A stretch of 64,000 bases of DNA, taken from NCBI GenBank assembly GCA_004299145.1, contig SCQD01000173.1:253-64252 (forward strand), given 5' to 3'. Each line of letters opens with the position of its first letter. Position 1 is the first letter of the stretch. Of the stretch, positions 3,040 to 60,628 are shown piece after piece. Under the pieces are notes generated by a model, which saw nothing but the letters and a program-made list of their open reading frames with translations, was not told the DNA's origin and ran no database searches. A program made the position numbers and the translations under genes. Source of the stretch: Methylococcaceae bacterium. Lineage in GTDB: Bacteria > Pseudomonadota > Gammaproteobacteria > Methylococcales > Methylococcaceae.

Positions 3040-3516
3040 TCAGGCCAACATTCTGGGATCAAATTCGAACGGGCTACGTTCGATAACCACTTGCACGTGA
3101 GTATGGTATTGGTCATGGCGGGGATTAAGCAGCAGATTGCCTTCGAACGGCTCAACGTAAGACGGCACCCATAAACCCAGCGATTTTTTGCCGCGTAGCC
3201 AAGCGAGGCCAAAGCCTTGGGTGTAGCCTTCATCCGCTTTCCAGTTCGCTGCTAATCCGATGTCCACGGCATGCAACATCAACGCGCCATCCAGCAGTTC
3301 AATGCGCATCAGTGCTTGTTCGACCGGCTGAACGCCGTTGCAATGTACGCGCTTTTCAAGCTGCGCCAGCGCTCGCGATTGCGCTGTATAGACCACCGGC
3401 TGACCACTCCCCGGCGCGTTGACGTGCCAACGCCCATTGGAAAGCCTCGAACCATAGGCCAGACCCTCCAAAGTAACGTCGCCGTCAAAACCAATACGGA
3501 AAACGCAAAGCGTCAA
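3040..3516 (-). CDS. RES-domain toxin (RES-Xre type II TA)
   Basis: RES-family look (SRLSNGRWHV, VVYTAQSRALAQLE, WVPSYVEP). Probable TTG start at 3516, a few nt after GGAGGGG, overlapping the stop of the upstream antitoxin. The longer ORF-track start at 3636 lies inside the antitoxin gene. Confidence 0.75.
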   Translation of the reverse strand: MTLCVFRIGFDGDVTLEGLAYGSRLSNGRWHVNAPGSGQPVVYTAQSRALAQLEKRVHCNGVQPVEQALMRIELLDGALMLHAVDIGLAANWKADEGYTQGFGLAWLRGKKSLGLWVPSYVEPFEGNLLLNPRHDQYHTHVQVVIERSPFEFDPRMLA

Positions 3517-6135: not shown

Positions 6136-6774
6136 TCACTCTGTTTTAGCGGCGCCTTGGGCCAAGGTCAGCATTTTGTCCAAAAGTTCTTTGAGCCTTG
6201 GACATTTCGCATAAGCAATATTTGGATCCAGTTTGCCAAACAACTCTCTGCCATTTACTACCTTTTTGTATGGGCGCCGGACATGCAAAGGATAAAGGCG
6301 TTCAAGCAGCTTTGCGGGAGGCTCGTCAAAATTGACGGTTTCAGGCCAGTGAATTTTTGCCGGAAACGCTACGCGGACTTCCCTGGGAAAAATATTCGGA
6401 TCGCTCAGCAGCCAAGCCTCAACTTCGTGCACCGCAAAAAACTGGAAAAACCGGGGATCGTTGACTTTGTCTTCCATGTGTTTCCTGGCCCATTCGTAGC
6501 GGGCTTCATACTCCGTCAACTCATCGGGGTAAAACGTCGGGCCATATAAGTCAAGCAGGGCAATAACGGCGATGACGTCGTTAGCCGACCGATTAAGGTG
6601 CATGCTGGCTTTTTGGGAGGCGTTTTTTACAAACTCCCGCCAACCTTCAAAACGGACAGTATTGATACCGACTGGATCAACGGATTTTTCCGCCAATCTG
6701 GGATCGAGCCATTTTTTCAGAAACGGCGGTAACGCTTTCTCCGTGTGACCTTCGACGAAAAGAACAAATTTCAT
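6136..6774 (-). CDS. DUF4276-like protein (possible TOPRIM-like nuclease partner)
   Basis: 212 aa. The N-terminal KFVLFVEGHTE resembles the acidic TOPRIM strand of OLD/AriB-type proteins. There is a 4-nt ATGA overlap with the upstream ATPase gene. Lower GC than the flanks. Confidence 0.6.
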   Translation of the reverse strand: MKFVLFVEGHTEKALPPFLKKWLDPRLAEKSVDPVGINTVRFEGWREFVKNASQKASMHLNRSANDVIAVIALLDLYGPTFYPDELTEYEARYEWARKHMEDKVNDPRFFQFFAVHEVEAWLLSDPNIFPREVRVAFPAKIHWPETVNFDEPPAKLLERLYPLHVRRPYKKVVNGRELFGKLDPNIAYAKCPRLKELLDKMLTLAQGAAKTE

Positions 6775-7955
6775 CCCATCTGCTCCAATTCGCCGGACTC
6801 GAACAGATCACCCAGAGAATATTCGTCCAGCCAATAATCCAGCGTTGCGCCTTGCAAAATCTGTAGCGTGGTTTCGCCGTTTTCCCATTTGGCAACGGTC
6901 GTGGTGGGTTTGATGGCCGTAAAAGCATCCAGAAGTTGCGGGGAGTGGGTGGTCAAGATGATTTGTGAGCGCGTAGCGGCCTCAGCGGCATACTCGGCGA
7001 TGATCGGCAGCATGGCAGGATGCAAACCGGTTTCCGGTTCGTCGATGGCAATGACTGGAGCGGGAGACGGGCTGGCCAAAACGGTCAATAAAAACAGAAA
7101 ACGCAGAGTGCCATCGGAAAGATCGGCAGCCGACTGTTCGCGCCGCAGTGATTTCCAGCGCACCCGCAATTGGATTTTCTGATCCGCAGCGGGCGGAAAC
7201 ACCAATTCCTCGAAGTCATCTCCAAAAGCGGCCTGCATCGCATCATTGATATCCCGCTTGAAATCACGATCTTCCGTATAGAGGGTATGCAACACCGAGA
7301 TGAGGTTCTGCCCATCCGGGTCTACCCGTTTTTCCCAACGGGCAATGGCGGGTTGTCGAATCAACGCGTCCTTATTGACGTGCAAATCGTGGTAAACCGC
7401 AATGGCTGCCAGTTGTTTTTGGAATGGCGGAATAAAGTGGTTGCTGACAAATGGGCCGGAAGCAATGGAAAGCAAGCTTTCTTCATCCGACACAAACTCT
7501 TCCGCCGTGGCAAACGAACGTTCATTTTCATCAAAAATAACCGCACTCTTCCCCTGTCTATGCAAAAATTTAAATGGATTTCTTTCGATTCTCTGTCTGA
7601 ATTTATAGGAGTTTATTACAGATTCGTTGTCTATTTTGTAAGAGCTGGATGATCCTAACCTGGCCAGTTCCAGCTCATAGCGTTCCGGGCCAAGATCGCC
7701 ACCTTCCGGCTTGGTTGTCACGGCAAATTTTATCGACGTCGATATTCCATCCCAGACCAGCGGGTTCATGCCGCCCAGTGATTGAATATATTTCCCCAAC
7801 CGCCCTTGGGCGGATACGGCGATCAACTCCAGCAAACGCAATAAGTTGGACTTGCCGGCGCCATTGGGACCAATGACTACGTTAAGATCGCCTGGTTCCC
7901 AGCTGACTTTCCGCAGGGAGCGAAAGCCTTCGACTTCCAATCGGGTAATTTTCAT
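6771..7955 (-). CDS. ABC-type/AAA_21 ATPase (OLD/AriA-like)
   Basis: Walker A VVIGPNGAGKSNLL. Signature-like LSDGTLRFLFL. Walker B and D-loop VIAIDEPETGLHP. H-loop ILTTHSP. 394 aa. Confidence 0.8.
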   Translation of the reverse strand: MKITRLEVEGFRSLRKVSWEPGDLNVVIGPNGAGKSNLLRLLELIAVSAQGRLGKYIQSLGGMNPLVWDGISTSIKFAVTTKPEGGDLGPERYELELARLGSSSSYKIDNESVINSYKFRQRIERNPFKFLHRQGKSAVIFDENERSFATAEEFVSDEESLLSIASGPFVSNHFIPPFQKQLAAIAVYHDLHVNKDALIRQPAIARWEKRVDPDGQNLISVLHTLYTEDRDFKRDINDAMQAAFGDDFEELVFPPAADQKIQLRVRWKSLRREQSAADLSDGTLRFLFLLTVLASPSPAPVIAIDEPETGLHPAMLPIIAEYAAEAATRSQIILTTHSPQLLDAFTAIKPTTTVAKWENGETTLQILQGATLDYWLDEYSLGDLFESGELEQMG

Positions 7956-24153: not shown

Positions 24154-25404
24154 ATGTTGAAAACCGAATTATTGGAAATCATCGCCAACGGCGAAAACTC
24201 CGGGATTGAATTTAAGCGGGATGATATTCGCCCCGAACAGTTGGCTAAAGAGATAGTCGCACTGGCAAACCTTCAAGGCGGCAGGCTGCTCCTCGGCGTC
24301 GAGGATGATGGGACGATATCGGGACTCCAGCAAAAGAATACTCAGGAATGGGTTCTGAATGTGTTTCGTGACAAAGTGTTTCCTCAAATTATCCCATTTT
24401 ATGAGGAGATAAAAATCGATGATCAGCGCCGGGTTGCTGTCATTACGATTGCGCCTGGCATTTCCAAACCGTACATGCTTAAACACGACAACAGGGAGGA
24501 GATTTATATCCGTATGGGAGACCGTTCTGAAAAGGCCTCCCGAGAACAGCAATTGCGGCTTTTTGAAAGCGGTGGATTACTGCGTGTTGAAGTGCTTCCT
24601 GTGGCAGGAACTTCGTTGGATAATCTGGATATTGATCGGCTCAGTTACTATTTTTCAGCCATCGTAGGTGACCCTGAAATACCCAAGTCCGGCTCGGAAT
24701 GGGAGGAGCGGCTAATGGGTTTCGGCCTGATGGCTTCCGACGGCTTGGGAAATACGGTGTGCTCAGTAGCCGGGTTGATCTGCTTCGGAATCAATCCACG
24801 GCGATTTCTTCGACAGGCCGGATTGCGCGTGATGGCCTTTGCCGGAACAGAAAAAGAATATCGGGCTTTGCTGGATATAGTGTTGGATGCTCCGTTAGTT
24901 GGGCGATGGAAAGTCAACGATGCAGGGAAAAAACAGTTGGTCGATGATGGTCTGATTGAAAAATTTGCGGCAGCCATAGTTCCTTTCATTACCCAAGAGG
25001 CTGCTGGTATTGATGAACATATGCGCCGAGAAAAGATAGAGTTTTATCCTTGGGAAGCAGTTCGTGAAACGGTAATCAATGCCCTCGCGCATCGTGACTG
25101 GACAAGGGCAGTAGATATAGAAGTAACAAATTATTCGGACCGATTAGAAGTTATCAGCCCCGGCAAACTTCAAAACTCCATGACTATTAGCAAAATGGTT
25201 GCAGGACAACGATCACCACGAAACACACTGATTATGGAAATCCTTCGTGATTATGCCTATGTTGATTCACGAGGCATGGGTGTGCGCACCAAAGTGATTC
25301 CACTGATGAAAAAATTTAACCAGGCTGAGCCGATTTTTGAGGCAACAGAGGATTATTTGAAGACGGTTTTGCCGAAAAAACAATCAAATCACGCCTCCGC
25401 ATAG
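24154..25404 (+). CDS. AlbA_2/Schlafen-type DNA-binding domain + HATPase_c_4-like ATPase (RecG-like putative regulator family)
   Basis: N-terminus LEIIANGENSGIEFKRD...ALANLQGGRLLLGVEDDG is the AlbA_2 hallmark. 416 aa. AT-richer than the flanks and adjacent to the IS remnant. Confidence 0.7.
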   Translation: MLKTELLEIIANGENSGIEFKRDDIRPEQLAKEIVALANLQGGRLLLGVEDDGTISGLQQKNTQEWVLNVFRDKVFPQIIPFYEEIKIDDQRRVAVITIAPGISKPYMLKHDNREEIYIRMGDRSEKASREQQLRLFESGGLLRVEVLPVAGTSLDNLDIDRLSYYFSAIVGDPEIPKSGSEWEERLMGFGLMASDGLGNTVCSVAGLICFGINPRRFLRQAGLRVMAFAGTEKEYRALLDIVLDAPLVGRWKVNDAGKKQLVDDGLIEKFAAAIVPFITQEAAGIDEHMRREKIEFYPWEAVRETVINALAHRDWTRAVDIEVTNYSDRLEVISPGKLQNSMTISKMVAGQRSPRNTLIMEILRDYAYVDSRGMGVRTKVIPLMKKFNQAEPIFEATEDYLKTVLPKKQSNHASA

Positions 25405-38261: not shown

Positions 38262-38516
38262 TCACCCAAATGCGTCGACGGAGTGGCTTAAATAACTCGG
38301 CGGTTCGTGTGGAGCGTGTTGAGGAAACGTCAATTCAACCCCGAACTTTTCGCCAAAACACTGCACGGCAAGATCCCCCAATCGTGTGGAGGGAGTGACC
38401 GCCTGTCGAAGAATGCGCCGCGCTTCCTCTTCCATGGATATGCGGTGATGGGCGGCGTGGATGCGCAATCGCGCGATGGTCTCGTCGTCCAGTTTTCGGA
38501 TGCTCAGATTAGCCAT
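38262..38516 (-). CDS. RHH (FitA/VapB-like) antitoxin (no PIN toxin partner seen)
   Basis: MANLSIRKLDDETIARLRIHAAHHRISMEEEARRILRQAV. GGGAG RBS before ATG 38516. Confidence 0.65.
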   Translation of the reverse strand: MANLSIRKLDDETIARLRIHAAHHRISMEEEARRILRQAVTPSTRLGDLAVQCFGEKFGVELTFPQHAPHEPPSYLSHSVDAFG

Positions 38517-38627
38517 GGCAAACTCCCAGGTTGCTATCACATGCAGGCATTAGCGCCATCCACTTAATATAACTTTTCAACAATTTGTTGGATTTTGACA
38601 ACCAACCCATATCAAGCGAATAACTTG

Positions 38628-38891
38628 TCATACTGCCATACCAACAAGATTACCCCAATTATTATAAATTGCTATTGATGACCAGATAGCAAACAAGACG
38701 CCCAGCCCTACACTTGATATAAAATTGACATCATTTTCTGTTTGCACTCCACGGGGGTATTTGCCAAATGTCGCCAGCAACAAAAATATACGACCAAAGT
38801 TAAATAACATAAGGCACCATAACAGGTACCATAGTACGAATTTGAGTATTTCGACTATACCTTCAAATATTATTTCAATAATGTTATTCAT
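38628..38891 (-). CDS. small membrane protein, unknown function
   Basis: 87 aa from ATG 38891, with 2-3 predicted TM helices. AT-rich island. Confidence 0.4.
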   Translation of the reverse strand: MNNIIEIIFEGIVEILKFVLWYLLWCLMLFNFGRIFLLLATFGKYPRGVQTENDVNFISSVGLGVLFAIWSSIAIYNNWGNLVGMAV

Positions 38892-39004
38892 GTATTTTGT
38901 TCTTTCGATGTATATAAGCTGTCCATTGCAGGCTGGTATGAGTCGGCGAATTCCAGCATAACCACACGCCATTGCTGGATTACGCGGAGGACCGCTAACC
39001 CAGT

Positions 39005-39415
39005 CTACGTGCTATGGTGGTATTTCTTTTTTTTGAAAGCACTCTCAAACGGCTTTGGTGAAAAGAATAAGCGTGCACAAAACGGGTATAGCAAATAATG
39101 CAAAAAGAGGATAGCGATACCGGCAGCGTTAATGGAACCGTTTAAGTAGGCGAGTAGAATAGCGATGAGGCACAGAGCGGCAATCATTCCGCTGTAGAAA
39201 AGTATGAAACGTGACAACTCGGATTTGGTTGGCGCACACCGCACGACTTTGACAACCCAGAGAAAAACCATGCAGGGAACGATACCCGCGATAAACCACG
39301 TAACGGGTGCCCCTTCAAGTTTGAGGATAACACGAAGTATAAAGTTGAGTAATATGACGCCTACAATTGCGCCAACCGCAAGTTTGAAAGGCGAAAATTC
39401 TTTCACATCATTCAT
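39005..39415 (-). CDS. 4-TM membrane protein, unknown function
   Basis: 136 aa with four hydrophobic helices. AT-rich island. Confidence 0.5.
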   Translation of the reverse strand: MNDVKEFSPFKLAVGAIVGVILLNFILRVILKLEGAPVTWFIAGIVPCMVFLWVVKVVRCAPTKSELSRFILFYSGMIAALCLIAILLAYLNGSINAAGIAILFLHYLLYPFCARLFFSPKPFESAFKKKKYHHST

Positions 39416-39545: not shown

Positions 39546-39845
39546 TTATCGCAGTCGGCGCCGAATTTTATTCGGGTCCACTTTGCCGTGAGTACACGCC
39601 AAAACAGTAACCACCGAGCCCCGCACCTCATACCAAACCAGAAAGGGAAAGCGATCCAGTACTACACGCCGGATGTTGCGATATACCACAGGATAGATGA
39701 ACGGCGTTTCCGAGAGCCGAGTTAAAACCTTGCTCAGTTCATGGTGAAATTTGGCAGCCAAGCCAGCCTGCTGCTCTTCGTACCATATTTGCGCTTCCGC
39801 CACTTCCAGCTCAGCGACTCTGCGGACATAGACAGCGAAACTCAA
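39546..39845 (-). CDS. ParE/RelE-family toxin
   Basis: 99 aa. ...YRNIRRVVLDRFPFLVWYEV...VTVLACTHGK. 4-nt overlap with the antitoxin gene. Confidence 0.75.
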   Translation of the reverse strand: MSFAVYVRRVAELEVAEAQIWYEEQQAGLAAKFHHELSKVLTRLSETPFIYPVVYRNIRRVVLDRFPFLVWYEVRGSVVTVLACTHGKVDPNKIRRRLR

Positions 39846-40063
39846 GGTAATTGCTGCCTAAGACGCGCCTGAACATCGGACCAAGGGCTCTGGTCATTGG
39901 GATTAAGCTCCATATCCGCCAGGCGAGCGTCCAACAACCCCTTTTCTTTTTCTGACACGGGTACTTCGCCGGGAGCCAGGGTTTTCCAAACAACCCCTAT
40001 GAGTTCAATGCGCTCAGCAACAGTGAGCGACTTTACTTGCGAAATGAGTGATGCGTTAATCAT
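39842..40063 (-). CDS. putative addiction-module antitoxin (TIGR02574-like)
   Basis: LTVAERIELIGVVWKTL...LLDARLADMELNP. 73 aa. Confidence 0.7.
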   Translation of the reverse strand: MINASLISQVKSLTVAERIELIGVVWKTLAPGEVPVSEKEKGLLDARLADMELNPNDQSPWSDVQARLRQQLP

Positions 40064-40117: not shown

Positions 40118-40501
40118 TTACTGCGTTGATTTTTCCGTTTCGCATACCAATATACCAACACCAAACGATTTTGCACGTCTTAAGTTTAAATATGCCTCCT
40201 GAAGAGAGCTAGCTGAACCAAAGCATATAGTTGATTTTGAACATCGCTCAAATTCATCGATTGCTTTACGAATTAGATTTGGATCATAATCTGATGCGCA
40301 AACTTTTACTAGAATATCGTCACCCCCACAAAAAACAACCTCCCAACCTTTCCTCGCCGTTATCACATCATTGACACACCTCATTCCGGCCGTAATTGCC
40401 TCAGATACCTTTTTACATTCGTCTAGCTTTCCATATAACAGCTGTTGCTCCATTCTTTGCCGAATGTTATCACCATCTCCAATTACATAAATTAGAGGCA
40501 T
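40118..40501 (-). CDS. minimal palm-domain nucleotide cyclase/polymerase (mCpol-like; Cas10/GGDEF-related)
   Basis: 127 aa. Strand 1 LIYVIGDGDNI carries two Asp residues. The GGDD hairpin is VVFCGGDDILV. The C-terminal ICFGSASSLQEAYLNLRRAKSFGVGILV is collinear with the GGDEF-domain S.G.A...A...AL..AK..G.N.V segment. 6-nt gap to the upstream gene. Confidence 0.6.
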   Translation of the reverse strand: MPLIYVIGDGDNIRQRMEQQLLYGKLDECKKVSEAITAGMRCVNDVITARKGWEVVFCGGDDILVKVCASDYDPNLIRKAIDEFERCSKSTICFGSASSLQEAYLNLRRAKSFGVGILVCETEKSTQ

Positions 40502-40507
40502 TTCATT

Positions 40508-41305
40508 TTACCCATTGTCATTTTTCCCACTCAAATAATCAATAAATTTTTGCGAAATCTCTGGATAACGATTTCTTACTTCATTAATGTACCCCTTGGC
40601 CTGTATATCCATGACTGCCAAACGTAACAATTCATCGCTTTCTGGCTTTTTACCTTCCTTTTCCAAGCAATAGGACAAGGCTACCTTAGGCCAAAAATCA
40701 AAATCGCTTGGCGAATCTTGCCGCACACGGAGCAATAAATCAGTGGCATTTGAATATTTGCACAATCCAATTAGACAGTACGATTTGTAAGAAAGCATCT
40801 TGCAATCAGACTTCCCAGCTCGCCTCAAATATATCCCAATCTCTTCGAATAATGACAAACTCTCTGAATACCTACCAACTTTTAGAAAGGCTTTTGCAAC
40901 GGATTTCGCCGCATCTATTAGACCCATAGCGAGAAGTTGATTTAATATTTTCTGCGCCTCTCTAATATCCCCCCTTGGGTCAACTTGAGCAGCTTTTTGC
41001 TTGATTTCAACCAGCTCTATTTTTTGATTGAGTTCTACATAACTTCGCTCATCCTGAAAATCAGATGGAGAATATAGCTTTACTGCATGATTAGCGACCA
41101 GCCATACAAAAGCACACAAAACTAAAGGAGGAAACACAACTAAAAACAGAACAAACGCCCATTTTTGCTCGACATTCAAAGCATCCGCAGACACACCTAG
41201 TACAAGCGATGCAATCGAATATACAAGAAAAATAAATAGTGCAATTATACCAAGAGGGTTCTTGGTGAAAGCCTTTGATGATGTCGAAAATTCTCCTGGC
41301 TCCAT
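40508..41305 (-). CDS. 2-TM membrane protein with a cytosolic TPR-like helical-repeat domain
   Basis: TM helices IIALFIFLVYSIASLVLGV and WAFVLFLVVFPPLVLCAFVWLVA, followed by about 190 aa of helical repeats. First gene of the operon with the mCpol-like gene. Confidence 0.6.
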   Translation of the reverse strand: MEPGEFSTSSKAFTKNPLGIIALFIFLVYSIASLVLGVSADALNVEQKWAFVLFLVVFPPLVLCAFVWLVANHAVKLYSPSDFQDERSYVELNQKIELVEIKQKAAQVDPRGDIREAQKILNQLLAMGLIDAAKSVAKAFLKVGRYSESLSLFEEIGIYLRRAGKSDCKMLSYKSYCLIGLCKYSNATDLLLRVRQDSPSDFDFWPKVALSYCLEKEGKKPESDELLRLAVMDIQAKGYINEVRNRYPEISQKFIDYLSGKNDNG

Positions 41306-41660
41306 CTCTGTTAATACTCAATTAAAAATAGCATAAAAAATCAGGATCGGTGTAGCAACTCATCATTAACCATGCATTTATTTTATACAAAGCAGGCATT
41401 TCTAAAAACTACAATGCATTACACTTCGACGCACACGATCCTGGATAAAACCGGCACGGTAGCTATGTTAGCGTAAGATGCACTAACTAGGTATCATGAA
41501 TTTCATCCAAAACCTACTCGCATAGACTCCAATGCACTAACGGTAAAGCTGTCGAGCCCCGCGCACAACAAGCATCATCTGAAACGTTCGATCAGTAATT
41601 TTGCCGCGCCTCCCGGAAATGGCGCTCCTGAATTTATCGCATGGCTCCAGCATGCCGGCT

Positions 41661-41712
41661 CTGGAAGCCGGAGCTTCCAGAGCCGCATTCCCAAGCAGGA
41701 GCTTGGGAACGA
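41661..41712. repeat. REP pair, type A
   Basis: CTGGAAGCCGGAGCTTCCAG and ATTCCCAAGCAGGAGCTTGGGAAC. Confidence 0.8.
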
Positions 41713-41883
41713 GCACGGCTTCGCTTCATACCCCCACCCAGCACGCCCCTTGTCGCAAACGCACCGCGCTGTGTCGGCATTGCGCGTATTTGTCGCGTTG
41801 CATACACCGGAAAATCAGCAGCGGCAGCGACACAATGCTTGCCGTCTATTGATTTATATAGTTGAATAAATAACGTTAGGTTT

Positions 41884-43906: not shown

Positions 43907-44108
43907 CGTTCCCACGCTTCGCGTGGGAACGCAGCCCGGGACGCTCCGCGTCCCGTGTCGCCACCGCGCTCAAAACAGAGGAACGCATCCGATGCCTAGC
44001 GCATCGGATGCGGTACATAACCGGCGATCCAGGATAGCCATCAGTGCGTTGCGCTGGTTCCCAAGCTCCAGCTTGGGAACCCGGCCCGGGAAGCTCCGGC
44101 TTCCCGGG
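43907..44108. repeat. REP array (types A and A')
   Basis: CGTTCCCACGCTTCGCGTGGGAACG, GGGACGCTCCGCGTCCC, GCATCCGATGC-N5-GCATCGGATGC, GGTTCCCAAGCTCCAGCTTGGGAACC and GGGAAGCTCCGGCTTCCC. Confidence 0.85.
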
Positions 44109-44307
44109 CGGCGAGGAGGGAAAGTTAAAGACTATCTCGTCGAATGGGGCATGCGCCCCATGCCCCATCCGCACCGTTGGTGGCGGCGTCAATGGAGCAA
44201 ACGCGCCGGTTTGCAGCCCGTCGGCAACATAAGCGTCACGGAAGGGATGAATATCCTCATCCAGCTTGCTCTTTCGCCGACGCTGGTGTTTATCGAATGC
44301 CGGGCTC

Positions 44308-44356
44308 GGGAAGCCGGAGCTTCCCAGGCCGCATTCCCAAGCAGGAGCTTGGGAAC
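44308..44356. repeat. REP pair, type A
   Basis: GGGAAGCCGGAGCTTCCC and ATTCCCAAGCAGGAGCTTGGGAAC. Confidence 0.8.
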
Positions 44357-44523
44357 GAGCGCAACGAGCGCACGAGCGTAGCGAGCAGCAGGCGCCGCTG
44401 TTGCTCCAGCAACAGCCCATCAGCACAAGCTGCTGCCGTAGCAGCAATCCCGCTCACTCGCAAAAATAAACTTCAACATAATCAACAGCATATGCATTGG
44501 CACAGGATTTGCCCATAGAGGTT

Positions 44524-46143
44524 ATGCAATCCATGAAGCCATTGACCCGCTACGCATTCATGACCGGCGCTTTGTTGCTTGCGGCCCCCGCGTGGCCGCA
44601 GGAGCAGCCCGCCGTGGCCGCGCCTCCACAATCCGACGCTTTACCCTCCTTCGATATGCTGGAAATACAAGTAGACGGCAACACCGTGCTGGAGCAAACC
44701 GTGGTCGAAAAAACCCTGTATCCGCTGCTCGGCACCGGCAAGACCGTCGGCGACGTCGAGCAGGCGCGGCAGACGCTGGAAGCCCTATATAAGGAAAAAG
44801 GCTATCCGACCGTGCTGGTGGACATTCCCGAACAGGACGTGGTGGCCGGCGTGGTGCGGCTGCAAGTGGTCGAAGGCGCCATCGAGCGCCTGAAAATCAC
44901 CGGCTCGCGCTATTTTCACCTGGACAAAATCCGCGAACAGGTGCCGGCGCTGGCGGCGGGCCAGGTGCCTTATATGCCGAAAGTGCAGGAACAGGTGGGC
45001 ATCCTGGGCCAGGAATCCGCCGACCGCCAGATTACGCCGATTTTCCGCGCCGGCGCTACGCCCGGCAAAACCGAGGTGGAACTGCGCGTCACCGACGAAC
45101 TGCCCTTGCACGGCAGCGTGGAAGTCAACGGCCGCAATTCGGAAAACACCAGCCGCACCCGCATGGTCAGCGCCGTGCGCTACGACAATCTGTGGCAGCG
45201 CTTCCACAGCGCATCGCTGCAATTCCAGGTGGCGCCGGAAAATGACGACGAAGTGGAAGTCTGGTCCGGCACTTATGTGCTGCCTACCGGCTGGGCGGAT
45301 ACCCGCCTGGCGTTGTACGGCATCGGCATCAGTTCCAATACCCAAATGGGCACCAGCATCGGCGGCCTGTCGGTGGTCGGCACCGGCTCGATTTACGGCG
45401 CGCGCCTGATCAAACCGTTGAGCGGCGGCGAAATTTACAACCACAGCCTGACGCTGGGCATCGATTACAAAAGCTTCAATCAGGGCGTCACCCAGCAAGG
45501 CCAGGATCAACAAACCTCGCCGGTCAGCTATGCCCCCTGGCAGATCGGCTACGACGGCAGCTGGCGCGCCGCGGGCGCGCTGACCTCGTTCAGCGCGGCG
45601 CTGCATTTCTCCGTCGACGGCCTGGGCAGCGACCAGCAGGAATTCGAAAACCGCCGTTTCAAAGCCAGGGCCGGTTATGCCTATCTCAGCGGCGAACTGA
45701 AGCACTGGCATGAACTGCCGTGGGACATGCGGCTGGCGGCGCGCGCCGCCGGCCAGATCAGCGCATCGCCGCTGATCAGCAACGAACAGTTCGCCGTCGG
45801 CGGACCGCAGAGCGTGCGCGGCTACCATCAGACGCAGCAACTGGGCGATAACGGCGTCAATGCCTCGCTGGAACTGCAAAGCCCGTCGTTCCAGCCGCAA
45901 GACTGGGATTTTTTGCAGAACCTGAAAGCGCACGTGTTTTTCGATTACGCCTATTTGTGGATACAGGACGCCTTGCCGCGCAACCCGGAGCACTACCGCC
46001 TGGCCGGCGCCGGCGCGGGTTTGAGGATGCAACTGTTCAAGCACTGGCAGGGGGAGTTCGACTGGGCTTATCCGCTGTACGCGCAGAGCAGCGTCGCCGC
46101 CGGCGAGCAGCGCGTGGATTTTCGGGTGGCTTATGAGTTTTAA
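44524..46143 (+). CDS. TpsB (ShlB/FhaC/HecB-family) outer-membrane transporter of the two-partner secretion system
   Basis: Signal peptide (KPLTRYAFMTGALLLAAPAWPQE). POTRA-like LEIQVDGNTVL. Beta-barrel ending in RVAYEF. Start is ATG 44524 or 44533 (the ORF track uses TTG 44497). Confidence 0.85.
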   Translation: MQSMKPLTRYAFMTGALLLAAPAWPQEQPAVAAPPQSDALPSFDMLEIQVDGNTVLEQTVVEKTLYPLLGTGKTVGDVEQARQTLEALYKEKGYPTVLVDIPEQDVVAGVVRLQVVEGAIERLKITGSRYFHLDKIREQVPALAAGQVPYMPKVQEQVGILGQESADRQITPIFRAGATPGKTEVELRVTDELPLHGSVEVNGRNSENTSRTRMVSAVRYDNLWQRFHSASLQFQVAPENDDEVEVWSGTYVLPTGWADTRLALYGIGISSNTQMGTSIGGLSVVGTGSIYGARLIKPLSGGEIYNHSLTLGIDYKSFNQGVTQQGQDQQTSPVSYAPWQIGYDGSWRAAGALTSFSAALHFSVDGLGSDQQEFENRRFKARAGYAYLSGELKHWHELPWDMRLAARAAGQISASPLISNEQFAVGGPQSVRGYHQTQQLGDNGVNASLELQSPSFQPQDWDFLQNLKAHVFFDYAYLWIQDALPRNPEHYRLAGAGAGLRMQLFKHWQGEFDWAYPLYAQSSVAAGEQRVDFRVAYEF

Positions 46144-46163
46144 CTTTTCGCGGCGGCTTGCAT

Positions 46164-46475
46164 CGTTCCCACGCTCTGCGTGGGAAAGCCGCCGCGCAGC
46201 GGAATTACTAAGGCTTCTGGAATGCATCCATGGGACGCTCCGCGTCCCGAATGGCGACATCGACCGGGATGGCGATAACACGCCGGAACGGGTTTGTAAC
46301 CCGTTTCCAGAAGCCTTAGTGTTTCCGCGAGAACGCGGCGGCTTTCGTAACGTTTTTAACGCCGGTGTTGCTGTTGCATCAGGTTTTATACAGGTAAAGG
46401 AAGGGTCCCCGACCCACCTAGCTATACGGGACGCGGAGCGTCCCGGGCTGCGTTCCCACGCGGAGCGTGGGAACG
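46164..46475. repeat. composite REP array between tpsB and tpsA
   Basis: Hairpins CGTTCCCACGCTCTGCGTGGGAA, GGGACGCTCCGCGTCCC, GGAACGGGTTTGTAACCCGTTTCC, GGGACGCGGAGCGTCCC and CGTTCCCACGCGGAGCGTGGGAACG. Also a long-range inverted repeat AAGGCTTCTGGAA...TTCCAGAAGCCTT. Confidence 0.85.
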
Positions 46476-46480
46476 ATGCA

Positions 46481-49400
46481 ATGACGGGCTTACTGGCGCA
46501 AACCATCCGCGCCATCATCGCCGGTAGCGTCGCGATGGGTGCCGGCGTATCGCCGGCCTACGCCGAACTGCCGGTGCCGCTCACCCCCGTCACCCTGTCG
46601 AAAACCCCCGTCGACATCGCGACCCAGGGCCAGGCGACGGCGGCCATCGCCGGCCATGCCATGACCATCAAACAGCTCAGCGACAAAACCACGCTGGATT
46701 GGCAGCGCTTCAATATCGGCGCCGGCAACAGCGTGCGCTTCGAGCAGCCTTCCTCTTCCTCGGTCGCGCTCAACAACATCCATCAGGCCGACCCCAGCCG
46801 CATCCTCGGCACGCTGACCGCCAACGGCCAGGTCTATCTGGTCAACCAGAACGGCTTTGTGTTCGGCAAGGATTCCCAGGTCAACGTCAACGCGCTGGTC
46901 GCCACCACGCTGGGCATCAGCGACACCGTGTTCCAGAACGGCATCACCCAAGCGTTCGACCTGGACGGCTCCGCCGCGCTGCAAGGCAGCGGCGAGGTCT
47001 ATCTCAAAGATAACAACGGCGCGTACCTGCTGGACGGCCAGGGCCAAAAAATCAAAATCCAGATTCTGCTGGAAAACGGCGCCGGCATCCGCAGCAACGC
47101 TCCCGGCGGCCGCGTCATCCTCGCCGCGCCGGTCATCGACAACGCCGGGGACATCAGCACGCCGGATGGTCAAACGATACTGGCGGCGGCCAAGGACAAG
47201 GTATATTTGCAGGAAGCCGGCGCCGATTCCGGCATACGCGGCCTGCTGGTGGAAGTCGGCAGCGGCGGCGCAGTGAACAACGTCGGCAAAGTGCTGGCCG
47301 AGCGCGGCAACGCCAGCCTGCTGGGCTTTGCCGTCAATCAGCGCGGCCTGGTGTCGGCGACCACCTCGGTCAGCCTCAACGGCTCGGTACGGCTGCTGGC
47401 GCGCGAAGGCATACAAGACCCTTCCGGCAGCGGCGGCAAACTGCTGCCCGCCGCCACCGTGCGCGCCGAGGCGCTGGACGACGGCCTGGGCGGCAAAGCC
47501 GGCGTGCACCTGGCCGGCGGCAGCCTGACCCAGGTCGGGCTGGACGCCGATAAAACCGCCACCGCCATCGACGCCCAGACGCAAAACCGCTCGCACGTCG
47601 AAATCAGCGGCCACGACGTGACGGTGCAGGCCGGCGCCACCATACAGGCGCAATCCGGCAATATCGACATCGCCGCCGTCGACGATCCCACCGACCCCGG
47701 CATCAAAGGCGATGCGCGCGTGGTGCTGGAAGCGGGCAGCCGCATCGACGCCGCCGGCGTGAAAAACCTCAGCCTGCCGGTGCAGCGCAACGTCGTTCAA
47801 GTGGAATTGCGTGCCAACGAACTGCGCGACGCACCGGCGCAGCGCGGCGGCGTGCTGTATGGACAAACGGTGGCGGTGGACCTGCGCGAGGCCAAACTGG
47901 CTTACGACGCCGACAGCGGCGCGCTGACCAGCGCCGGCATTCCCGTGGCCGACATCAAAGGCGCGGTGGACCGCATCGCCCGCAATATCGACGAGCGCAG
48001 CACCAGCGGCGGCACGGTGACGCTCAAATCCAGCGGCGACGTGGTCACGCAGTCCGGCAGCGTCATCGACATTTCCGGCGGCTCCATCGCCTATCGGAGC
48101 GGCACCATTGCCACCACCCAACTGGTGGCCGATGGCCAGGTGTTCGACATCGCCCACGCCGATCCCAACCGGCATTACGACGCCATCCTGGGCCAGGCGC
48201 AAGAAACGCATCCGCACTGGGGCATCACCGAGAACTGGACCATCCCCGGTCTGGCGCTGCAACGCTTTGAACCCGGCTATCTCGAAGGCAAGGCCGGCGG
48301 CACGCTGCACATCGCCGCCTACCAGGCCTGGCTGGACGGCGCGGTGGACGGCGGCACCGTGGCCGGTCCCTTGCAGCGCACGGCCGACAGCCGCGCCGCC
48401 GGCAGCACCTGGGTGCTCGATTTAAACAACAACAACCTGCTGGGCAAGCAGGATGTGGTATTCAGGCAGAACCCTCACCCCAGCCCTTTCCCGGCGGAGG
48501 GGGACTGGAGCGAGGGTTCTGCGGAAACAGCGCCGCTGACTATTGACGCCGGCTGGTTCAAACGCTCCGGCATCAGCCACGTCGAACTCAAAACCAACGG
48601 CAGCGTCAGCCTGCTGAGTGGGGCGCGCCTGGAGTTGCCGGACAACGGCAGCCTGAACCTGGCGGCAGCCGGCTTCGATATTCAGGGCGCCATCGTGGCG
48701 CCGTCCGGCACAGTGACGCTGCAACCGGTCAGCGCCGCCGACACGCGGCTGCCCAGCCCGATCACGCTGGGCGCTACCACCCTGATCGACGTGGCGGGGC
48801 GTTGGGTGAATGATCTTTTGGGCAGTCAACAAGGTAACGCCGAACTATGGAGCGCGGCGGCAGAACGCAGTGGCGACGCCGCTTTGGATTTCGCAGCCAT
48901 GCGGTTTCCTACTGGCCCACAGTCCTGGATTGATTCACAACCGGCGCTGGTTCAACAGACCTCCTCCGCTACGAAAGCCATAGCGCCGTCGCGCTATCGC
49001 TTGCCGGCGCACTCCATAGCCGACCACGGCGGTGAGGTCACCCTGGTGACCGAACAAGGCGATTTGCAGTTGGACCAAGGCAGCCGCATCGACGTCAGCG
49101 GCGGCGCCTGGCTGGACGTCGACGCCAGGCTGCACGCCGGCCAGGCCGGCGCCATCCAGCTGACCGCCGCCACGCACGACGGCGGCGGCGCGCCGTCCAG
49201 CCTGATCCTGGACGGCGCGCTGGCGGGCTGGGGGCTGACCCAGGGCGGCAGCCTCAGCCTGGACACCAGCGCCGTGGTGATCAGCGAGACGCCTCCCGCC
49301 AATTCCGTAGGGTACGCGGTGCGTACCTTCGACGACGGCGAACGGTACGCACAGCGTACCCTACAACTCACCCCGGACTTTTTCCGGCAAGGCGGTTTTG

Positions 49401-52400
49401 CTGATTACCGCCTGACCTCCAACCGCTACGGCCTGACGCTGGCCGACAATACCGCGCTGACCCTGCGCCAGCAAAACCTGCAACTGAGCGGCGCGGCGGC
49501 GCAGCAAGCCGGCGGCGTGCGCTTGCTGGACTTCAGCACGCCGGTCACTTTGCCGGACGCCGTGCGCAATCCGGTCAACCTCCAGCTGTCCCTGAGCCAA
49601 TTGCTGGCGCAGGACCGCGAGCAAAGTCTGACGATAGGCCTCAGCGCGCTGATTCAAACCGATGCCGACGGCGCGGTGCAACTGGACTCCGATACCTCGA
49701 TTCAGGTGGACGGCACGATAGTCGCGCCGGGCGGCAACATCACCCTCAACATCAATACCCCCAGCGCCGGCGACAAAGGTTACTTCGCTACCCAGGGCAT
49801 CCAGCTGGGCGCGGCCAGCCGCCTGCTGGCGCCGGGCGCTTTCAAGCCGACCTTGAACGAGGCCGGCCTGAAAACCGGCGAGGTGCTGTCCGGCGGCAAC
49901 GTGACGCTGACCGCCAGGCGCGGTTACATCGTCAGCAGCCCCGGCTCGCTGATCGACGTTTCCGGCACCGCGGCATCCCTGGACATTCAATACAGCGCCG
50001 CCGCCGGCCTGCCGGTCGTCAGGCAGCAAATCGTCTCCTCCGGCGGCAACATCACGCTGCGCGCCGGTGAAGGCATGCTGGCCGAAGGCAGCCTGCTGGC
50101 CAAGGGCGGCGACGGCGCCGCCGGCGGTGCGCTGTCGGTCGAACTGAACCGCAACTTGCGCAACAAGCCGCTGATTCCGCTCAGCGACGGTCTGTTCCCG
50201 GACGATGTCGACGCCGCGTTGCCGCGCAGCATCGTGATCAGCGACACGGACAGCCATCCGGCTTCCTCGCCTTCCAGCGGTATGGCCTGGTTCAACAGCG
50301 CACAACTGAACGACGCCGGTTTCGACTCATTGCGCTTCAAAACCGACGTGCTGGGTGCCGACGGCACCTACGCCGGCAATATTCAATTCAAAGGCAACGT
50401 GCAATTGAGCGCGCCACGGCAGATCGTGCTGGATACGCCGCAGCTGAAAACGGCGGGCGGCATCATCGGCCTGCATACCGATTATGCCGCGTTGGGTTCC
50501 AGCGGCAGCCGCATCGATACCGACCTGGGCGACGGCAGCTTTTCCAGCACGCTGGCCCCGGCCCCCAAAACCGGCTCCGGCAGTTTCAGCGTCAGCGCGC
50601 AAGGCATCGATCTGATCGGCGGCTTGAGCTTCAACGGCTTCGATAAAGTCCACCTGAACAGCCAGGGCGATGTGCGCACCATCGGCATCCGCGTTCGCTC
50701 CGACACCAAGGATTATCTGGGTCAGTTGAAACTGGCCGGCGACTTGACGATCCAGGCCAGCCAGGTCTATCCGGCCACGCTCAGCGATTACCGCATCAAC
50801 CTGAGCGGCGATCAGGCAACGCTGACGCTGTCGAACAGCGGCGCGGCACCGTCGCCGGTGTATTCCGCCGCCGGCAAACTGACGCTCAGCGCAGCCGACA
50901 TCCAGCAAAGCGGCGTGTTGAAAGCGCCGTTCGGTACGCTGGTGTTGGACGCGGCCAGGCAGCTGACGCTGGCCCCCGGCAGCCTGACCTCGGTATCCGG
51001 CGCCGGCCTGACCGTGCTGTTCGGCCAGGGCTCGGGCGGCATGAACTGGCTGTATCCGCTGGACAGCACCGGCAACACCAATCTCGCCATCGATCACCCG
51101 CCGGAAAAACATATCAGCCTGACCGGCAAAAACATCGCCTTGCAGGACGGCGCCAAAGTCGAGCTGTCCGGCGGCGGCGATCTGTACGCCTATGAATTCA
51201 TCGCCGGCCCCGGCGGCTCGGTCGACGTGCTCGATCCCAGTGCGGCAGGCTACACGCCCAAATACGCCGTGCTGCCGACGCTGAACCACGCGCTGACGCC
51301 TTACGATCCCAAAGAATTCGCCGCGGCGGGGCTCCAGGTGGGCGACAGCGTTTACCTCAGCAGCGGTTCAGCGCTGGCGGCCGGCTGGTACACGCTGCTG
51401 CCGGCGCACTACGCGCTGCTGCCGGGGGCTTACTTGCTGACGCCGCAGGCGGACAGCCGCGACCGGCTGCCCGGCCAGGCCAGCACCGACCTGCTGGGCG
51501 CCACCCTCATCGCGGGCCGTTACGGCGCCGCCGGCACGGCAACCGGCGATGGCCGCTGGCAAGGCTTTGCCGTGGAACCCGGTGCCGTGGCGCGGACCCG
51601 TGCGCAGTACACGGACTATCTGGCGAACCGCTTTTTCGCCGAGCAAGCGGCAGCCGGCGGCGGCGTAAGCGCGCGGGCTTTGCCGCAAGACGCCGGCAGC
51701 CTGGCGCTCAGCGCGCAGACCGGTTTAACGCTGGGCGCCGAACTGGCGGCGGCTCCCGCCGGCGGCGGCTTGGGGGGACAGGTCGACATCAGCGCCACCC
51801 ACTTGGCGATTATCGGGCGGCGAGAGGATGATGAAGCGGCGGCTGGCACGGTCTACCTGCCGGCGGACGCGCTGAACCAGCTCAATGCCCCCAGCCTGTT
51901 GCTGGGCGGCGTGCGCAGCCAAAGCGCGAACGGCCGGCGCGTAACGGTGGCGGCGCAAACGCTGACCATCGCCGGCAACGCGGCATTGCGCGGCGCTGAA
52001 ATCCTGCTGGCCGCACAAAACACGCTGAAGCTGGAATCCGGCGCGCTGGTGAGCAGCACCGGCAAAAACGGCGGCGGCGGCGTCGATTTACAGGTAGCCA
52101 ACCAGGGGCAAAACAGCGGTGACGGCGTGCTGCTGCGCGTGTCCGCCTCCGGCCAGGCCGACATCGACCGTGTTGGGCGCGTCACCGGCAAAACCGGCAC
52201 GCTGATCGTCGAAAGCGGCGCGCGGCTGGCATCGGACAACTCGATGCTGTTGGACGCCACGCAGAATACGGTATTCGACGGCGCCATCGACATGCGGGGC
52301 GGCTCGCTGGCGCTCAGGGCCGGCAAGATCAGCCTGGGCGATGCGCCCAAAGGCACGACCGGCCTGGTGCTGTCTTCCGCCCATTTCGACCTGGACGAAT

Positions 52401-55400
52401 TGCAGCTGAGCAGTACCGGCAACCTGGACATATACGGCAACGTCGCCGTCGATGCCGGCCTGCTCGCCGTCGACGCCGCGGCCATCGACGGCCATGGCAA
52501 CGCCGATGCCACGCTGACGGCGGAGGTTTTGCGGTTGGGGTATAGCGGTGATGGTACCCGTTCCTCGTTCCCAAGCTCCAGCTTGGAAACGAGGACTGGG
52601 AAGCTCCGGCTTCCCGAACCCGATCCGGAGCTTGGGAACCAGCGGAACTTTCGTTTTCAGACACAAGGGCTTTCAACTCTCGAACAGCGCTTTATGTTTT
52701 TGCAACCCGGAGGGTTGCCAGCCATTAGCCGGGGGTTGAGCGGAGCGACACCCCCGGTAACGGACATCGATATGAAGCCCACGACCCTGGAGGGGTCGCA
52801 GCGGGCCACGGAGCGCGAATCTCTGCGACCCCTCCAGGGTCGCATGGATCAAACCACCATCCCATCCGGGGGTGTCGCTGGCGCTCAACCCCCGGCTAAT
52901 AGCTTGGAACCCTCCGGGTTCCCTCGTTTCCGCTCGTTCCCAAGCTCCAGCTTGGGAACGAGGACTGGGAAGCTCTGGCTTCCCGAGTTCGAACAGACGG
53001 GAAACCGGAGCTTCCCGGATCGGGTTCCCAAGCCGGAGCTTGGGAACCAGCGGAACCAACTGCTGCTACACGCCGACCAGATACAACTGGCCAGCGGCGA
53101 TTACGCGATCACCGGCTTCGGCCAGGTCGATCTGCGCGCCACCACGGCCATTAAAGGTCTGGGCCAGACGCTGGACCCGCTCACCGGCCAGGCCAGTCTG
53201 GCCGCCGCCGGCAACTTGAGCGTTGCGGGCGATCTGCACTTGCAAGCCGGCCACTACACCGGCGCTGCCGGCGCCACCACCCGCATCGACGCCGGCGAGC
53301 ATGCGGTGACGATCACCTCCCCCGGCAGCGCCGACCCGGCCTGGAGCAGCGGGTTGGGCGCCAGCTTGAGCATCAGCGGCGCAAGCATCGCCGGTAGCGG
53401 CCGCTTCGATCTGCCGTCCGGCAGGCTGGAACTTACCGCCACGCAAGGCGATGTCGCGCTGAACAGCGGCACCCATATTGACGTGTCGGGCCGGGCACTG
53501 ACCTTTGCCGAGCTGACGCGCTATGCACCCGCCGGCAGCGTGTCGCTGGCGGCGCCGCGCGGCAATGTCGATCTCGCCGCCGGCGCCGGCATCGATCTGA
53601 GCAGCGCGGCCAGCGACGCACTGCCCTTCGGCGACGCCGGGTTGCTGAAGATCAGCGCGCCCCAGGGCCGGTTTTTGTGGAACGGAACGATTACCGCGCT
53701 GGGCGGCGTTGCGGGTGATTCGGCTGATTCCGGCGTGATGCCTCGTGGTGAGGAGACCGGGGGCAAAGATATGGCTGAAAACAACCTGTTCGACGGGGCA
53801 ACACCGCCACAAGGCCAATTCCAGCTCGACGTCGACAACTTCGGCGCGGGCGGCTTTTCGGCGCTCAACCGCAAGCTGGCGGCGGCGGGTTTCAGCGCGG
53901 CGCTGACGCTGCAACAGCGCAGCGGCGACATCGCCATTACCGCCGACGACACGGTCACCGCTCACCAGTTGGTATTACGTGCCGATCAAGGCGGGGTGAC
54001 GATAGACGGCGGCATCGACGCGAGCGGCGCCCGGGCCGGCGAGGTGTCGATCCATGGCGGCAACGGCATCACGCTGGGCGCCACCGGCAAGATCGCCGCC
54101 AACGCCACGGCGGCCGGTGCCGACGGCGGCAGCGTGATGCTGGATGCTGTGCCTGGGAGCGCGGCCATCCTGGCCGCATCCTGGGGCCGCGGCCATCTTG
54201 GCCGCAGTGCGGGCGGGACGCCCGCGCTCCCAGGGTTAGACCTCTCCCACACCGGCACCGTCATCGACGTCTCCGGCGGCCAGGGCGGCGCCGGCGGCTC
54301 CGTCCATCTGCGCGCCGGCCGCGACGACGCGCAGCACAGCGTCGCCGTCACCGACATAAACACCCGCATCGTCGGCGCCGCTCCCGAACGCACCGTGTTG
54401 GAAGCCGTCCGCGTTTACGACGGTCAGTCGGTCATCGACGCGGACGCCATCGCCGCCTGGCAGTCGGACACCAGCCGTTTCATGGCGACCGCAATCAGCC
54501 CGGCCAATGCGTCCGGCGCGGCCATCCCACTGCTGCCCGGCCTCGAAATCCGCGGCAACGCCGATCTGACCTTGGCCAGCCGCTGGGATTTGCTGAGCTG
54601 GCGCTATAACGATGCCGAGGGCGCGGCAACCTTGCCGGGCTTTTTGACGCTGCGAGCGAACGGCGATTTGAACGTCAAAGCCACGCTGAGCGACGCCTTC
54701 GCCACCGCGCTGATTCCCGGCCAGACCTCGACCCAGTTGCAGGATCTGCTGCAACCCGGACGCTCGTGGAGCTATCAATTGATCGCCGGCGGCGACCTCA
54801 CGCTGGCCCATAGCTACAGCGCGCCCGATCCTTTCGGTTATGGGCAAAAAGTCGACAGCCAAGTGATGGTCCGTACCGGCACCGGCGCCATCGCACTACA
54901 AGCGGGCGGCGATATTCAGTTTGCCGGCAACCGTTATGACCCTAACGCGGCGGCAGCGGTGTACACCATGGGCAGGCCCGCCGACTACACCCGCGGCCAA
55001 TTGCTGAGCGGCGCGGTGCCGGGCGTACCGGCCAGGCTGGACGGCGAAACCGACGCCGCCTATCTGAACCGCCTCGATCCCGCACAGATGAATACGCTGC
55101 TGCGCTACGGCTATTTCAACGAAACCCTGCTGGGCCTGGCGTTCAGCGTGGCGGAATATCCGACCCAGGGCGGCGCCGTTAAGCTCACTGCCGGCGGCAA
55201 TATCACCGGCATCGCCACCGGTCAGGAAATCAGCGACTGGCAGGTGCGCAGCGGCGTCATCGACGTCAACTTCCGGCCTACCGCCTGGGGCATCAACGTC
55301 AGCGGCGACCGCAGCGGCGCCGTCAATAATATTTCCGCCAAGGGCCTGCGCTATTTCAACCAGAACGTCGGCGCGCTGGGCGGCGGCGACGTCACGGTCA

Positions 55401-60418: not shown

Positions 60419-60442
60419 GTGCCGAGGGAGGTGATGTCCCGC

Positions 60443-60628
60443 TGGTTCCCAAGCTCCAGCTTCCGCTGGTTCCCAAGCTCCAGCTTGGGAACCCGGTCTT
60501 GGAAGCTCCGGCTTCCTGTCTGTCCGCCCGTTCGGGCCCGGGAAGCTGGAGCTTGGGAACGAGGAAACCGCCGTTACTTATGCGGCGCGGCGCGCCGAGG
60601 ATGCATTCCCACGCGGCGCGTGGGAACG
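60443..60628. repeat. REP array between exbD and the tonB-like gene
   Basis: Tandem GGTTCCCAAGCTCCAGCTT units, GGAAGCTCCGGCTTCC, GGGAAGCTGGAGCTTGGGAAC and ATTCCCACGCGGCGCGTGGGAAC. Confidence 0.85.

Follow-up and report, generated by a model that had tools for sequence, protein, structure and literature searches.

What kind of system is formed when a minimal nucleotide cyclase stands beside a membrane protein that ends in a helical-repeat domain? The question is raised by two adjacent genes in a 64,000-nucleotide stretch of a Methylococcaceae bacterium (assembly GCA_004299145.1, contig SCQD01000173.1, positions 253 to 64,252), referred to here as the window. One gene encodes a stand-alone mCpol (minimal CRISPR polymerase) and the other a 265-aa protein, here called the partner, with two transmembrane (TM) helices (2TM) and a domain resembling tetratricopeptide repeats (TPR). 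A first-pass annotation, made from the sequence alone, treated mCpol as a computational prediction. This is now outdated, since mCpol has been characterised as the synthase of Panoptes, an anti-phage system (PMC12657218, PMC12657230, PMC13577387).

The reading that we favour, and to which we give an even chance, is that the pair is a horizontally acquired, two-gene, Panoptes-like anti-phage module with a new effector, in which the constitutively made mCpol product would hold the membrane effector off. It is supported by the identity of the mCpol, the conserved and specific pairing of the two genes, relatives of the cyclase that are paired with CARF-TM proteins, the modular nature of the TPR-like domain and the foreign context among toxin-antitoxin (TA) genes. 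The identities and general logic given in the first-pass annotation stand, but its account of what is known of mCpol does not, and it probably had the sign of the signalling inverted: the effector was to be activated as in type III CRISPR or in the antiphage signalling systems based on cyclic oligonucleotides (CBASS), whereas characterised mCpol systems repress constitutively.

The 127-aa protein is a stand-alone mCpol

The pair consists of two minus-strand open reading frames (ORFs), 40508-41305 (265 aa) and 40118-40501 (127 aa), with the positions, lengths and 6-nt gap first reported for them. The 127-aa protein is a stand-alone mCpol at the level of profile, fold and residues, in agreement with its earlier placement among palm-domain cyclases. 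It matches Pfam PF18182 at 64.4 bits (cut-off 26.4; residues 5-115, profile positions 1-108 of 114), NCBIfam NF033576 at 55.8 (cut-off 40) and Pfam PF22335, the second palm of Cas10/Cmr2, at 30.1 bits (cut-off 27). The top six Foldseek chains for the AlphaFold2 (AF2) model (pLDDT 90.1) are from the OptS/mCpol crystal entries 9pd0, 9mnr and 9nwn (TM-score 0.81-0.89, root-mean-square deviation 1.7-2.0 A), with GGDEF and Cas10 palms ranking next at about 0.5-0.7. The mCpol domain spans residues 5-118 of 127, and no regulatory or Cas10 accessory domain is fused to it.

The motifs previously quoted, LIYVIGDGDNI, VVFCGGDDILV (GGDD at 59-62) and ICFGSASSLQEAYLNLRRAKSFGVGILV, are all present. Residues G8, D9, G10, D11, R14, S33, G59, G60, D61 and D62 are invariant in 10 homologues, as are A103, Y104, N106, L107, R108, A110 and K111 (AYLNLRRAK), and the motifs are therefore not due to chance. 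D9, D61 and S33 align with D6, D57 and S30 of KpOptS (HMMER alignment to 9nwn and 9mnr), in which D6 and D57 bind metal and are needed for activity and S30 selects adenine over guanine (PMC12657218). By this alignment D9 and D61 are predicted to hold metals, S33 is predicted to lie at the adenine-selecting position, and the downstream gene is judged to encode an mCpol with intact catalytic residues. Identity to OptS is only ~20%, and the full Cas10-type GGDD, largely lost in OptS, is kept here. In two relatives (L115, 5085-5435, and L116, 852-1202), which like the window mCpol follow a 2TM-TPR gene, GDGD is replaced by GDAD and GGDD by GGDE, and the hairpin motif thus varies within the TPR-paired mCpols.

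The partner combines a 2TM module with a TPR-like domain

An AF2 model of the partner, built from 16 homologues, has a pLDDT of 82.7 overall and of 90-97 over residues 100-260. It contains TM helices at 17-39 and 45-77, a linker helix at 86-106 and nine further helices, and its soluble part of ~188 aa is close to the ~190 aa of helical domain expected beforehand behind two TM helices. Both termini of the 2TM module are predicted to be cytoplasmic. Foldseek returned TPR proteins only (KLC-like 4y6w, MamA 3as5 and CTPR; probability 1.00, TM-score 0.4-0.6), but Pfam TPR matches were all below cut-off (12.8-14.9 bits against 23.5-27), and the domain is therefore labelled TPR-like. Its invariant columns form the motifs DPRG (109-112), AKAFLKV.RY (137-146), Y.SY.LIGL (173-181), DFWP (203-206) and YPE (247-249).

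A β-barrel, CARF or SAVED domain was not found in the partner by the all-helical model, profile scans or Foldseek. No Pfam, NCBIfam or PADLOC family matched it above cut-off and nothing covers the 2TM module, while a profile of the C-terminal domain gave just weak generic TPR matches in the PDB. TcpS, MamA and PDC-M53A were rejected as identities for the partner, all being sub-threshold matches, and PDB sequence matches to an enoyl-ACP reductase (E 0.02) and EMC6 are spurious.

The two genes form a conserved mobile cassette

About 23 full-length relatives of the partner were found, all of them metagenomic, with none in 185,579 species-representative genomes. Two further candidates (L062 and L081) appeared longer by tblastn, yet only the N-terminal hidden Markov model matched them and they were set aside. 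The 2TM-TPR protein is obligately paired with an mCpol, the effector gene coming first. This order is seen in the window and seven further lineages, and the mCpol follows within -4 to +13 nt wherever downstream DNA is available, both in L001, L002-L005, L006 and L091 and in three more divergent lineages, those of P0133 (L112, L113), P0130 (L115, L116) and P0139 (L117). Identity between partners falls to 40% within the close family and P0130, P0133 and P0139 are more divergent still. Co-conservation of the two genes, which was to be looked for in other neighbourhoods, is thus borne out. The 80 best of the 221 relatives in which the 2TM module bears another C-terminal domain all lack an adjoining mCpol, and the pairing is therefore specific. 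A scan of viral contigs with the mCpol alignment found nothing and hence gave no sign of a phage-borne pair.

The flanks of the paired loci are unrelated and include integrase, reverse transcriptase, insertion sequence, GmrSD+HEPN, AAA_14/DUF4143 and Cas2 genes. As they differ at each locus, the mobile unit is the pair itself, a cassette found in defence or mobile genetic element (MGE) contexts. In L112 (4759-5220 and 9770-9772) the Cas2 gene starts ~4.5 kb downstream of the TPR-mCpol pair at a contig edge, and is the only hint of CRISPR proximity in the family. A 459-aa sequence (P0012; ending ...GRASCRERV), in which a 2TM-TPR N-terminus is joined to HATPase_c_4, was rejected as an assembly chimera on a 1.7-kb ENA contig.

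In the window the cassette is foreign, horizontally acquired DNA. The pair has a GC content of 39-40% in a contig of ~62%, and lies in an islet of GC 0.38-0.47 across ~38.3-41.5 kb with both flanks at 0.60-0.66. GC at third codon positions is 0.30-0.35 in the islet genes against 0.6-0.8 in host genes and most other ORFs. The contig around them is that of a Methylococcaceae methanotroph, the catalytic half of its RNase E having 80-84% identity to the RNase E of Methylocaldum, Methylococcus and Ca. Methylocalor, and a foreign origin of the cassette follows. Between 38003 and 41305 all ORFs lie on the minus strand, so that the AT-rich, one-strand islet noticed at first sight is real.

The two ORFs share one reading frame, with the TAA and two codons between them, so that readthrough would fuse them, and no terminator-like site was found between the genes in a promoter/terminator scan. 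At homologous loci the two genes overlap by 4 nt or lie 9-13 nt apart. A readthrough fusion was rejected because the genes of L001 and L006 overlap by 4 nt out of frame, and the in-frame layout in the window is probably coincidental.

Coupling this tight, together with strict co-occurrence, would also fit a physical complex, in which the TPR-like domain docks the mCpol at the membrane and the mCpol either serves as a proteinaceous antitoxin or, within the complex, feeds nucleotide to receptors elsewhere. TPRs usually bind proteins, and BcTir and BcTpr are reported to act as a protein complex (preprint 10.1101/2023.05.26.542521). However, D9, GGDD and S33 are invariant in the aligned paired mCpols (GGDE in L115/L116), which indicates that catalysis is under selection. 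The C-terminal tails of the mCpols, the usual ligands of TPRs, are not conserved in length or sequence, and no other conserved receptor was found in the neighbourhoods of paired loci. A tether of this kind is considered decidedly unlikely.

Both halves of the partner are shuffled modules

The 2TM module is 40-58% identical across hundreds of proteins with other C-termini, among them CheY-like REC and winged helix-turn-helix domains, and the 221 relatives found in the species-representative genomes belong to many phyla. REC-fused and other 2TM relatives are usually encoded by stand-alone genes. The module is unusually conserved for one without a Pfam family (loci L007-L090), and it also occurs in a Heimdallarchaeota metagenome-assembled genome.

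When the profile of the C-terminal domain was searched against 1.84 billion representatives, 58 matched at E<=1e-10, with generic TPRs below. Most have the same 2TM architecture, and the TPR-like domain is also fused to TIR_2 (P0143, P0160, P0168, P0172), to different multi-TM modules (P0162, P0182, P0190) and to a ParA/MinD-type ATPase (P0194). It appears to be shuffled among effectors as a sensor domain would be, like CARF and SAVED. Pairing with mCpol tracks one part of the TPR-like family, the members with DPRG and/or FWP motifs.

In a sister subfamily, recognised by the motif WH..ALAYAYF, the fusion partner is TIR_2, another type of multi-TM module or a ParA-like ATPase. At L109 (4291-6685) and L110 (421-2815) a separate TIR_2 gene lies ~0.5 kb downstream of the gene for the WH-type TPR-like protein. 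At L108 (408-3872) two genes come after the WH-type gene, one for a GT4 'conflict' glycosyltransferase and one for a protein of 396 aa whose GS...DxD motif is nucleotidyltransferase-like. These loci may be further signalling systems with the same sensor.

Relationship to known mCpol systems

In type I and type II Panoptes the mCpols act constitutively and 2TM effectors are repressed by what they make. In all characterised mCpol systems the effector is triggered when phages deplete the signal, and all those tested to date act against phages (PMC12657218, PMC12657230, PMC13577387). Type I, OptSE, consists of an mCpol and S-2TMβ with 2',3'-c-di-AMP as the signal (PMC12657218, PMC12657230). Type II consists of an mCpol and a CARF-TM protein with cyclic triadenylate (cA3) as the signal (Gruschow et al., PLoS Biol 2026, PMC13577387). 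The partners in the mCpol neighbourhood table of Sullivan et al. are S-2TMβ, dCARF+TM+TM, TM+TM+CARF, TM+TM+SAVED and CARF+HEPN, beside orphan mCpols, and a TM+TM+TPR partner is absent from that table. Among the papers searched, none combines mCpol with TPR.

A metagenome scan with an alignment of the mCpols of this clade recovered a further TPR-paired locus, together with 16 mCpols that are more distant, at 29-40% identity. These nearest mCpols without a TPR partner (L092-L107) share the GGDD, the Ser and AYLNLRRAK. In 15 of the 16 (not L096) a conserved protein of ~270 aa follows, and the three scanned (L094, L102, L105) are CARF-TM proteins by PADLOC model PDLC01992 (E 1e-46 to 1e-49), which has no match in the window partner. 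At L096 (810-1946) the mCpol is nearly identical to that of L094 but is not followed by CARF-TM, and an unrelated ORF without a Pfam match starts 240 nt downstream; replacement or loss of the effector may have occurred there. In a neighbour-joining tree, made from short sequences and carrying no support values, TPR-paired and CARF-TM-paired mCpols interleave in one group, far from type I KpOptS. From these sequences, the cyclase lineage of the pair appears to be the one that is otherwise paired with CARF-TM, that of type II Panoptes. As its closest relatives are paired with CARF-TM, this lineage would have exchanged CARF-TM for 2TM-TPR, and the exchange would place the TPR-like domain in the sensor position.

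The resemblance to type II thus covers the closest cyclase lineage with its common motifs, and a two-gene cassette with a small partner of two TM helices and one soluble domain. It ends with the soluble domain itself, a Rossmann-type CARF there and an all-helical TPR-like fold here, with the TM helices, which are C-terminal there and N-terminal here, and with the gene order, which is reversed so that the effector comes first here. Type I shares the enzyme fold (TM-score 0.81-0.89), the two-gene operon, the N-terminal 2TM of the effector and the location in a foreign islet, and effector-first order also occurs in it. However, its effector has a β-barrel where a TPR-like domain is found here, and the window pair adjoins no CBASS. 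The logic of a small TM effector under cyclic-nucleotide control is also that of the CBASS membrane effectors (Cap15 and other 2TM proteins), but there is no CD-NTase here, and the TM module and sensor are unrelated to theirs in sequence and fold. The partner is thus neither OptE/Cap15 (type I) nor CARF-TM (type II), and the effector and sensor of the pair are probably undescribed.

TPR domains beside nucleotide-signal enzymes have a possible precedent in TIR-associated systems. Burroughs and Aravind reportedly described 'DRHyd+TPR-S <- TIR' systems in 2020. Supplementary Table 3 of Sullivan et al. explains TPR-S as a TPR sensor domain and shows it in no system other than a neighbouring DRHyd+TPR-S<-TIR one. 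For BcTpr, binding of cyclic ADP-ribose (cADPR) has been reported (preprint 10.1101/2023.05.26.542521). In these systems too, helical repeats occupy the sensor position of an effector beside a nucleotide-signal enzyme (TPR-S being likened by description only), and among relatives of the window TPR-like domain some have a TIR fusion and others a TIR_2 gene nearby. The signal generator is a TIR there and an mCpol here, and the effector is DRHyd there and 2TM here. We count this precedent for TPR proteins in nucleotide signalling, the TPR-S gloss and cADPR binding by BcTpr, in favour of a Panoptes-like module.

Proposed mechanism

In a Panoptes-like module of this type, the mCpol would make a cyclic oligoadenylate from ATP constitutively. 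Constitutive synthesis is deduced from the lack of a sensory domain, and the product is probably an oligoadenylate because of S33 and the kinship with type II. The TPR-like domain, in the slot held elsewhere by a β-barrel, CARF or SAVED domain, would bind this product and block oligomerisation of the 2TM module. A phage sponge or ring nuclease would deplete the signal, upon which the 2TM module would assemble, permeabilise the inner membrane and abort the infection. Tight coupling of the genes would ensure that the cyclase, as 'antitoxin', is made whenever the effector is made. We infer the nucleotide ligand, the sign of the signalling and the defence function of the pair, and likewise infer nucleotide rather than protein binding by the TPR-like domain and disruption of the membrane as the output. 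A broader proposal, made tentatively and with somewhat more against it than for it, is that the ~165-residue TPR-like domain (DPRG / AKAFLKV.RY / DFWP / YPE) represents an unrecognised class of cyclic-oligonucleotide receptor, functionally equivalent to CARF, SAVED and the S-2TMβ barrel, that has been shuffled onto 2TM, multi-TM, TIR and ParA-like effectors and would define a third Panoptes type.

Several observations weigh against the Panoptes-like reading. The normal ligands of TPR domains are peptides or proteins, PDB sequence and profile searches and Foldseek gave no solved nucleotide sensor similar to the TPR-like domain, and precedent for nucleotide binding by such a fold is limited to the TPR-S prediction and the BcTpr preprint. 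No PADLOC model recognises the partner. The sister WH..ALAYAYF subfamily has no adjoining mCpol in four of the four lineages examined (L108, L109-L111, L114, L118), and the domain can therefore work without a cyclase and may sense something else. REC-fused forms of the 2TM module are found in housekeeping-looking contexts, and toxicity of the module is an assumption. The pair has no CBASS or type III CRISPR to guard within 10 kb, while such systems accompany from about half (PMC12657218) to ~80% (PMC12657230) of type I Panoptes loci. The evidence is wholly computational, and the family is known only from metagenomes.

The same fold would suit positive signalling, as in CBASS or type III CRISPR, with the TPR-like domain recognising a phage protein or peptide and switching on the bound or nearby mCpol, whose nucleotide would then activate the 2TM module or an unlinked effector and kill the cell. 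Arrays of TPRs typically serve to recognise proteins, and every fold match is to a peptide- or protein-binding TPR. Occurrence of the domain without mCpol, fused to TIR or an ATPase, fits a trigger sensor, and for the rarer mCpol partnerships Sullivan et al. leave open whether regulation is negative or positive. On the other hand, the mCpol consists of the palm alone and lacks a regulatory domain, as do the constitutive enzymes of types I and II, and its closest relatives belong to a system with inverse signalling (PMC13577387). With the TPR-like domain as phage sensor, the cassette would also be left without a recognisable nucleotide receptor. Positive signalling is regarded as unlikely.

Through Panoptes, bacteria protect their nucleotide-signalling immunity by means of a decoy signal, and the effectors characterised so far have β-barrel and CARF domains only, SAVED having been catalogued. 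If the helical-repeat domain reads a cyclic oligonucleotide, it would be a new receptor fold for prokaryotic, and possibly eukaryotic, nucleotide immunity; alternatively, an mCpol wired to a protein-sensing module would follow a logic unlike that of the known Panoptes types. The 2TM module and the TPR-like domain, two uncharacterised and widely shuffled modules, probably serve as components of further conflict systems, and the pair, with two small genes, is a compact candidate for a new nucleotide-receptor fold.

Neighbouring genes and boundaries of the islet

Features of the cassette and the rest of the islet are given in Table 1. A scan of the region upstream of the pair for a sigma-70-like consensus (41306..41560) found no site, and there is no convincing promoter upstream of 41305. 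As the terminator scan found none after 40118, the pair and the downstream TA pair may be transcribed together.

Table 1. Cassette features and neighbouring islet genes, by position in the window.
Feature	Position	Strand	Remarks
AT-rich 5' intergenic region upstream of the pair	41306..41560	-	presumed promoter location; GC at host level beyond ~41.5 kb
N-terminal 2TM module, residues 1-95	41021..41305	-	consensus NPLGIIALFI...FP..V...F.WLV..H..KLY.P.DFRD; proposed membrane effector
Linker helix and TPR-like domain, residues 96-265	40511..41020	-	cytoplasmic; proposed sensor
6-nt spacer aatgaa	40502..40507	-	...GGG TAA aatgaa ATG CCT...; TAA of 265-aa gene, ATG of mCpol
mCpol (minimal CRISPR polymerase), palm only, 127 aa	40118..40501	-	Pfam, NCBIfam, AF2/Foldseek, residue alignment
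Addiction-module antitoxin	39842-40063	-	PF09720, TIGR02574
99-aa ORF, earlier called ParE	39546-39845	-	4-nt overlap with TIGR02574-type antitoxin; toxin label by position only
Two small proteins of 114 and 136 aa, predicted to lie in the membrane	38628-39415	-	inside the AT-rich islet
FitA-like ribbon-helix-helix (RHH) antitoxin	38262-38540	-	

The antitoxins at 39842-40063 and 38262-38540, claimed before as TA neighbours, are confirmed by profile, but the supposed ParE toxin has no match in Pfam, NCBIfam or PADLOC. Nor do the 114- and 136-aa membrane proteins, which are absent beside the pair in other loci. Position among TA genes would also suit a role outside immunity, either as a nucleotide-mediated TA cassette stabilising the mobile islet or as a pair for membrane-stress signalling. 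Panoptes itself formally behaves as a TA pair, the 2TM module with REC domains is found in ordinary metabolic neighbourhoods, and there is no CBASS or CRISPR within 10 kb to be guarded. However, the neighbours of related loci, namely GmrSD+HEPN, reverse transcriptase, integrase and Cas2 genes, mark defence islands or MGEs, and all mCpol systems tested so far are anti-phage (PMC12657218, PMC12657230, PMC13577387). A role of this kind is considered very unlikely.

The defence scan covered ~40 ORFs of the window, which comprise all substantial ones up to 10 kb from the pair (30.6-49 kb) and some of the more distant ones. It found no cas, CD-NTase/SMODS, CARF or SAVED gene among those ORFs, and neither a CRISPR array nor an Rfam family was found in the window. 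The same absences of cas, CARF, SAVED and arrays had been noted from the sequence alone. The only cas-type similarity in the scans was the weak Cas10-palm resemblance of the mCpol itself.

Boundaries of the islet were sought as direct repeats, tRNA genes and integrase genes but none were found, and the window contains no tRNA gene and only palindromes resembling repetitive extragenic palindromic (REP) elements. These repeats of ~58-63 nt (41657-41714, 44047-44109, 44303-44366 and 60439-60486) have the core TTCCCAAGC...GCTTGGGAAC, are in direct and inverted orientation, and are the source of recurring 'SQAGAWER'-type spurious ORF peptides. The copy at 41657-41714 marks the upstream edge of the GC-poor islet and lies just outside it.

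Other genes in the window

A low-GC two-gene candidate defence system of the HEC-01 type is located at 6136-7955 on the minus strand, and consists of an AAA_21/AbiEii-like ATPase, matched by PADLOC HEC-01A at E 3.7e-64, and a DUF4276 protein, matched by HEC-01B at E 3e-17. At 24154-25404 on the plus strand, a low-GC gene (0.47) encodes a 416-aa protein with Schlafen AlbA_2 and HATPase_c_4 domains. It has weak PADLOC similarity to pAgo-associated and SIR2-type regions and may be a defence gene. A two-partner secretion locus (44497-57826, plus strand) encodes an Omp85/TpsB-type transporter of 548 aa and, after it, an exoprotein of 3897 aa that has a TPS domain at its N-terminus, and a 629-aa ORF without a family match is found upstream of these genes. 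A RES-domain toxin and an Xre/MbcA/ParS-type antitoxin (3040-4067, minus strand) form a RES-Xre TA pair.

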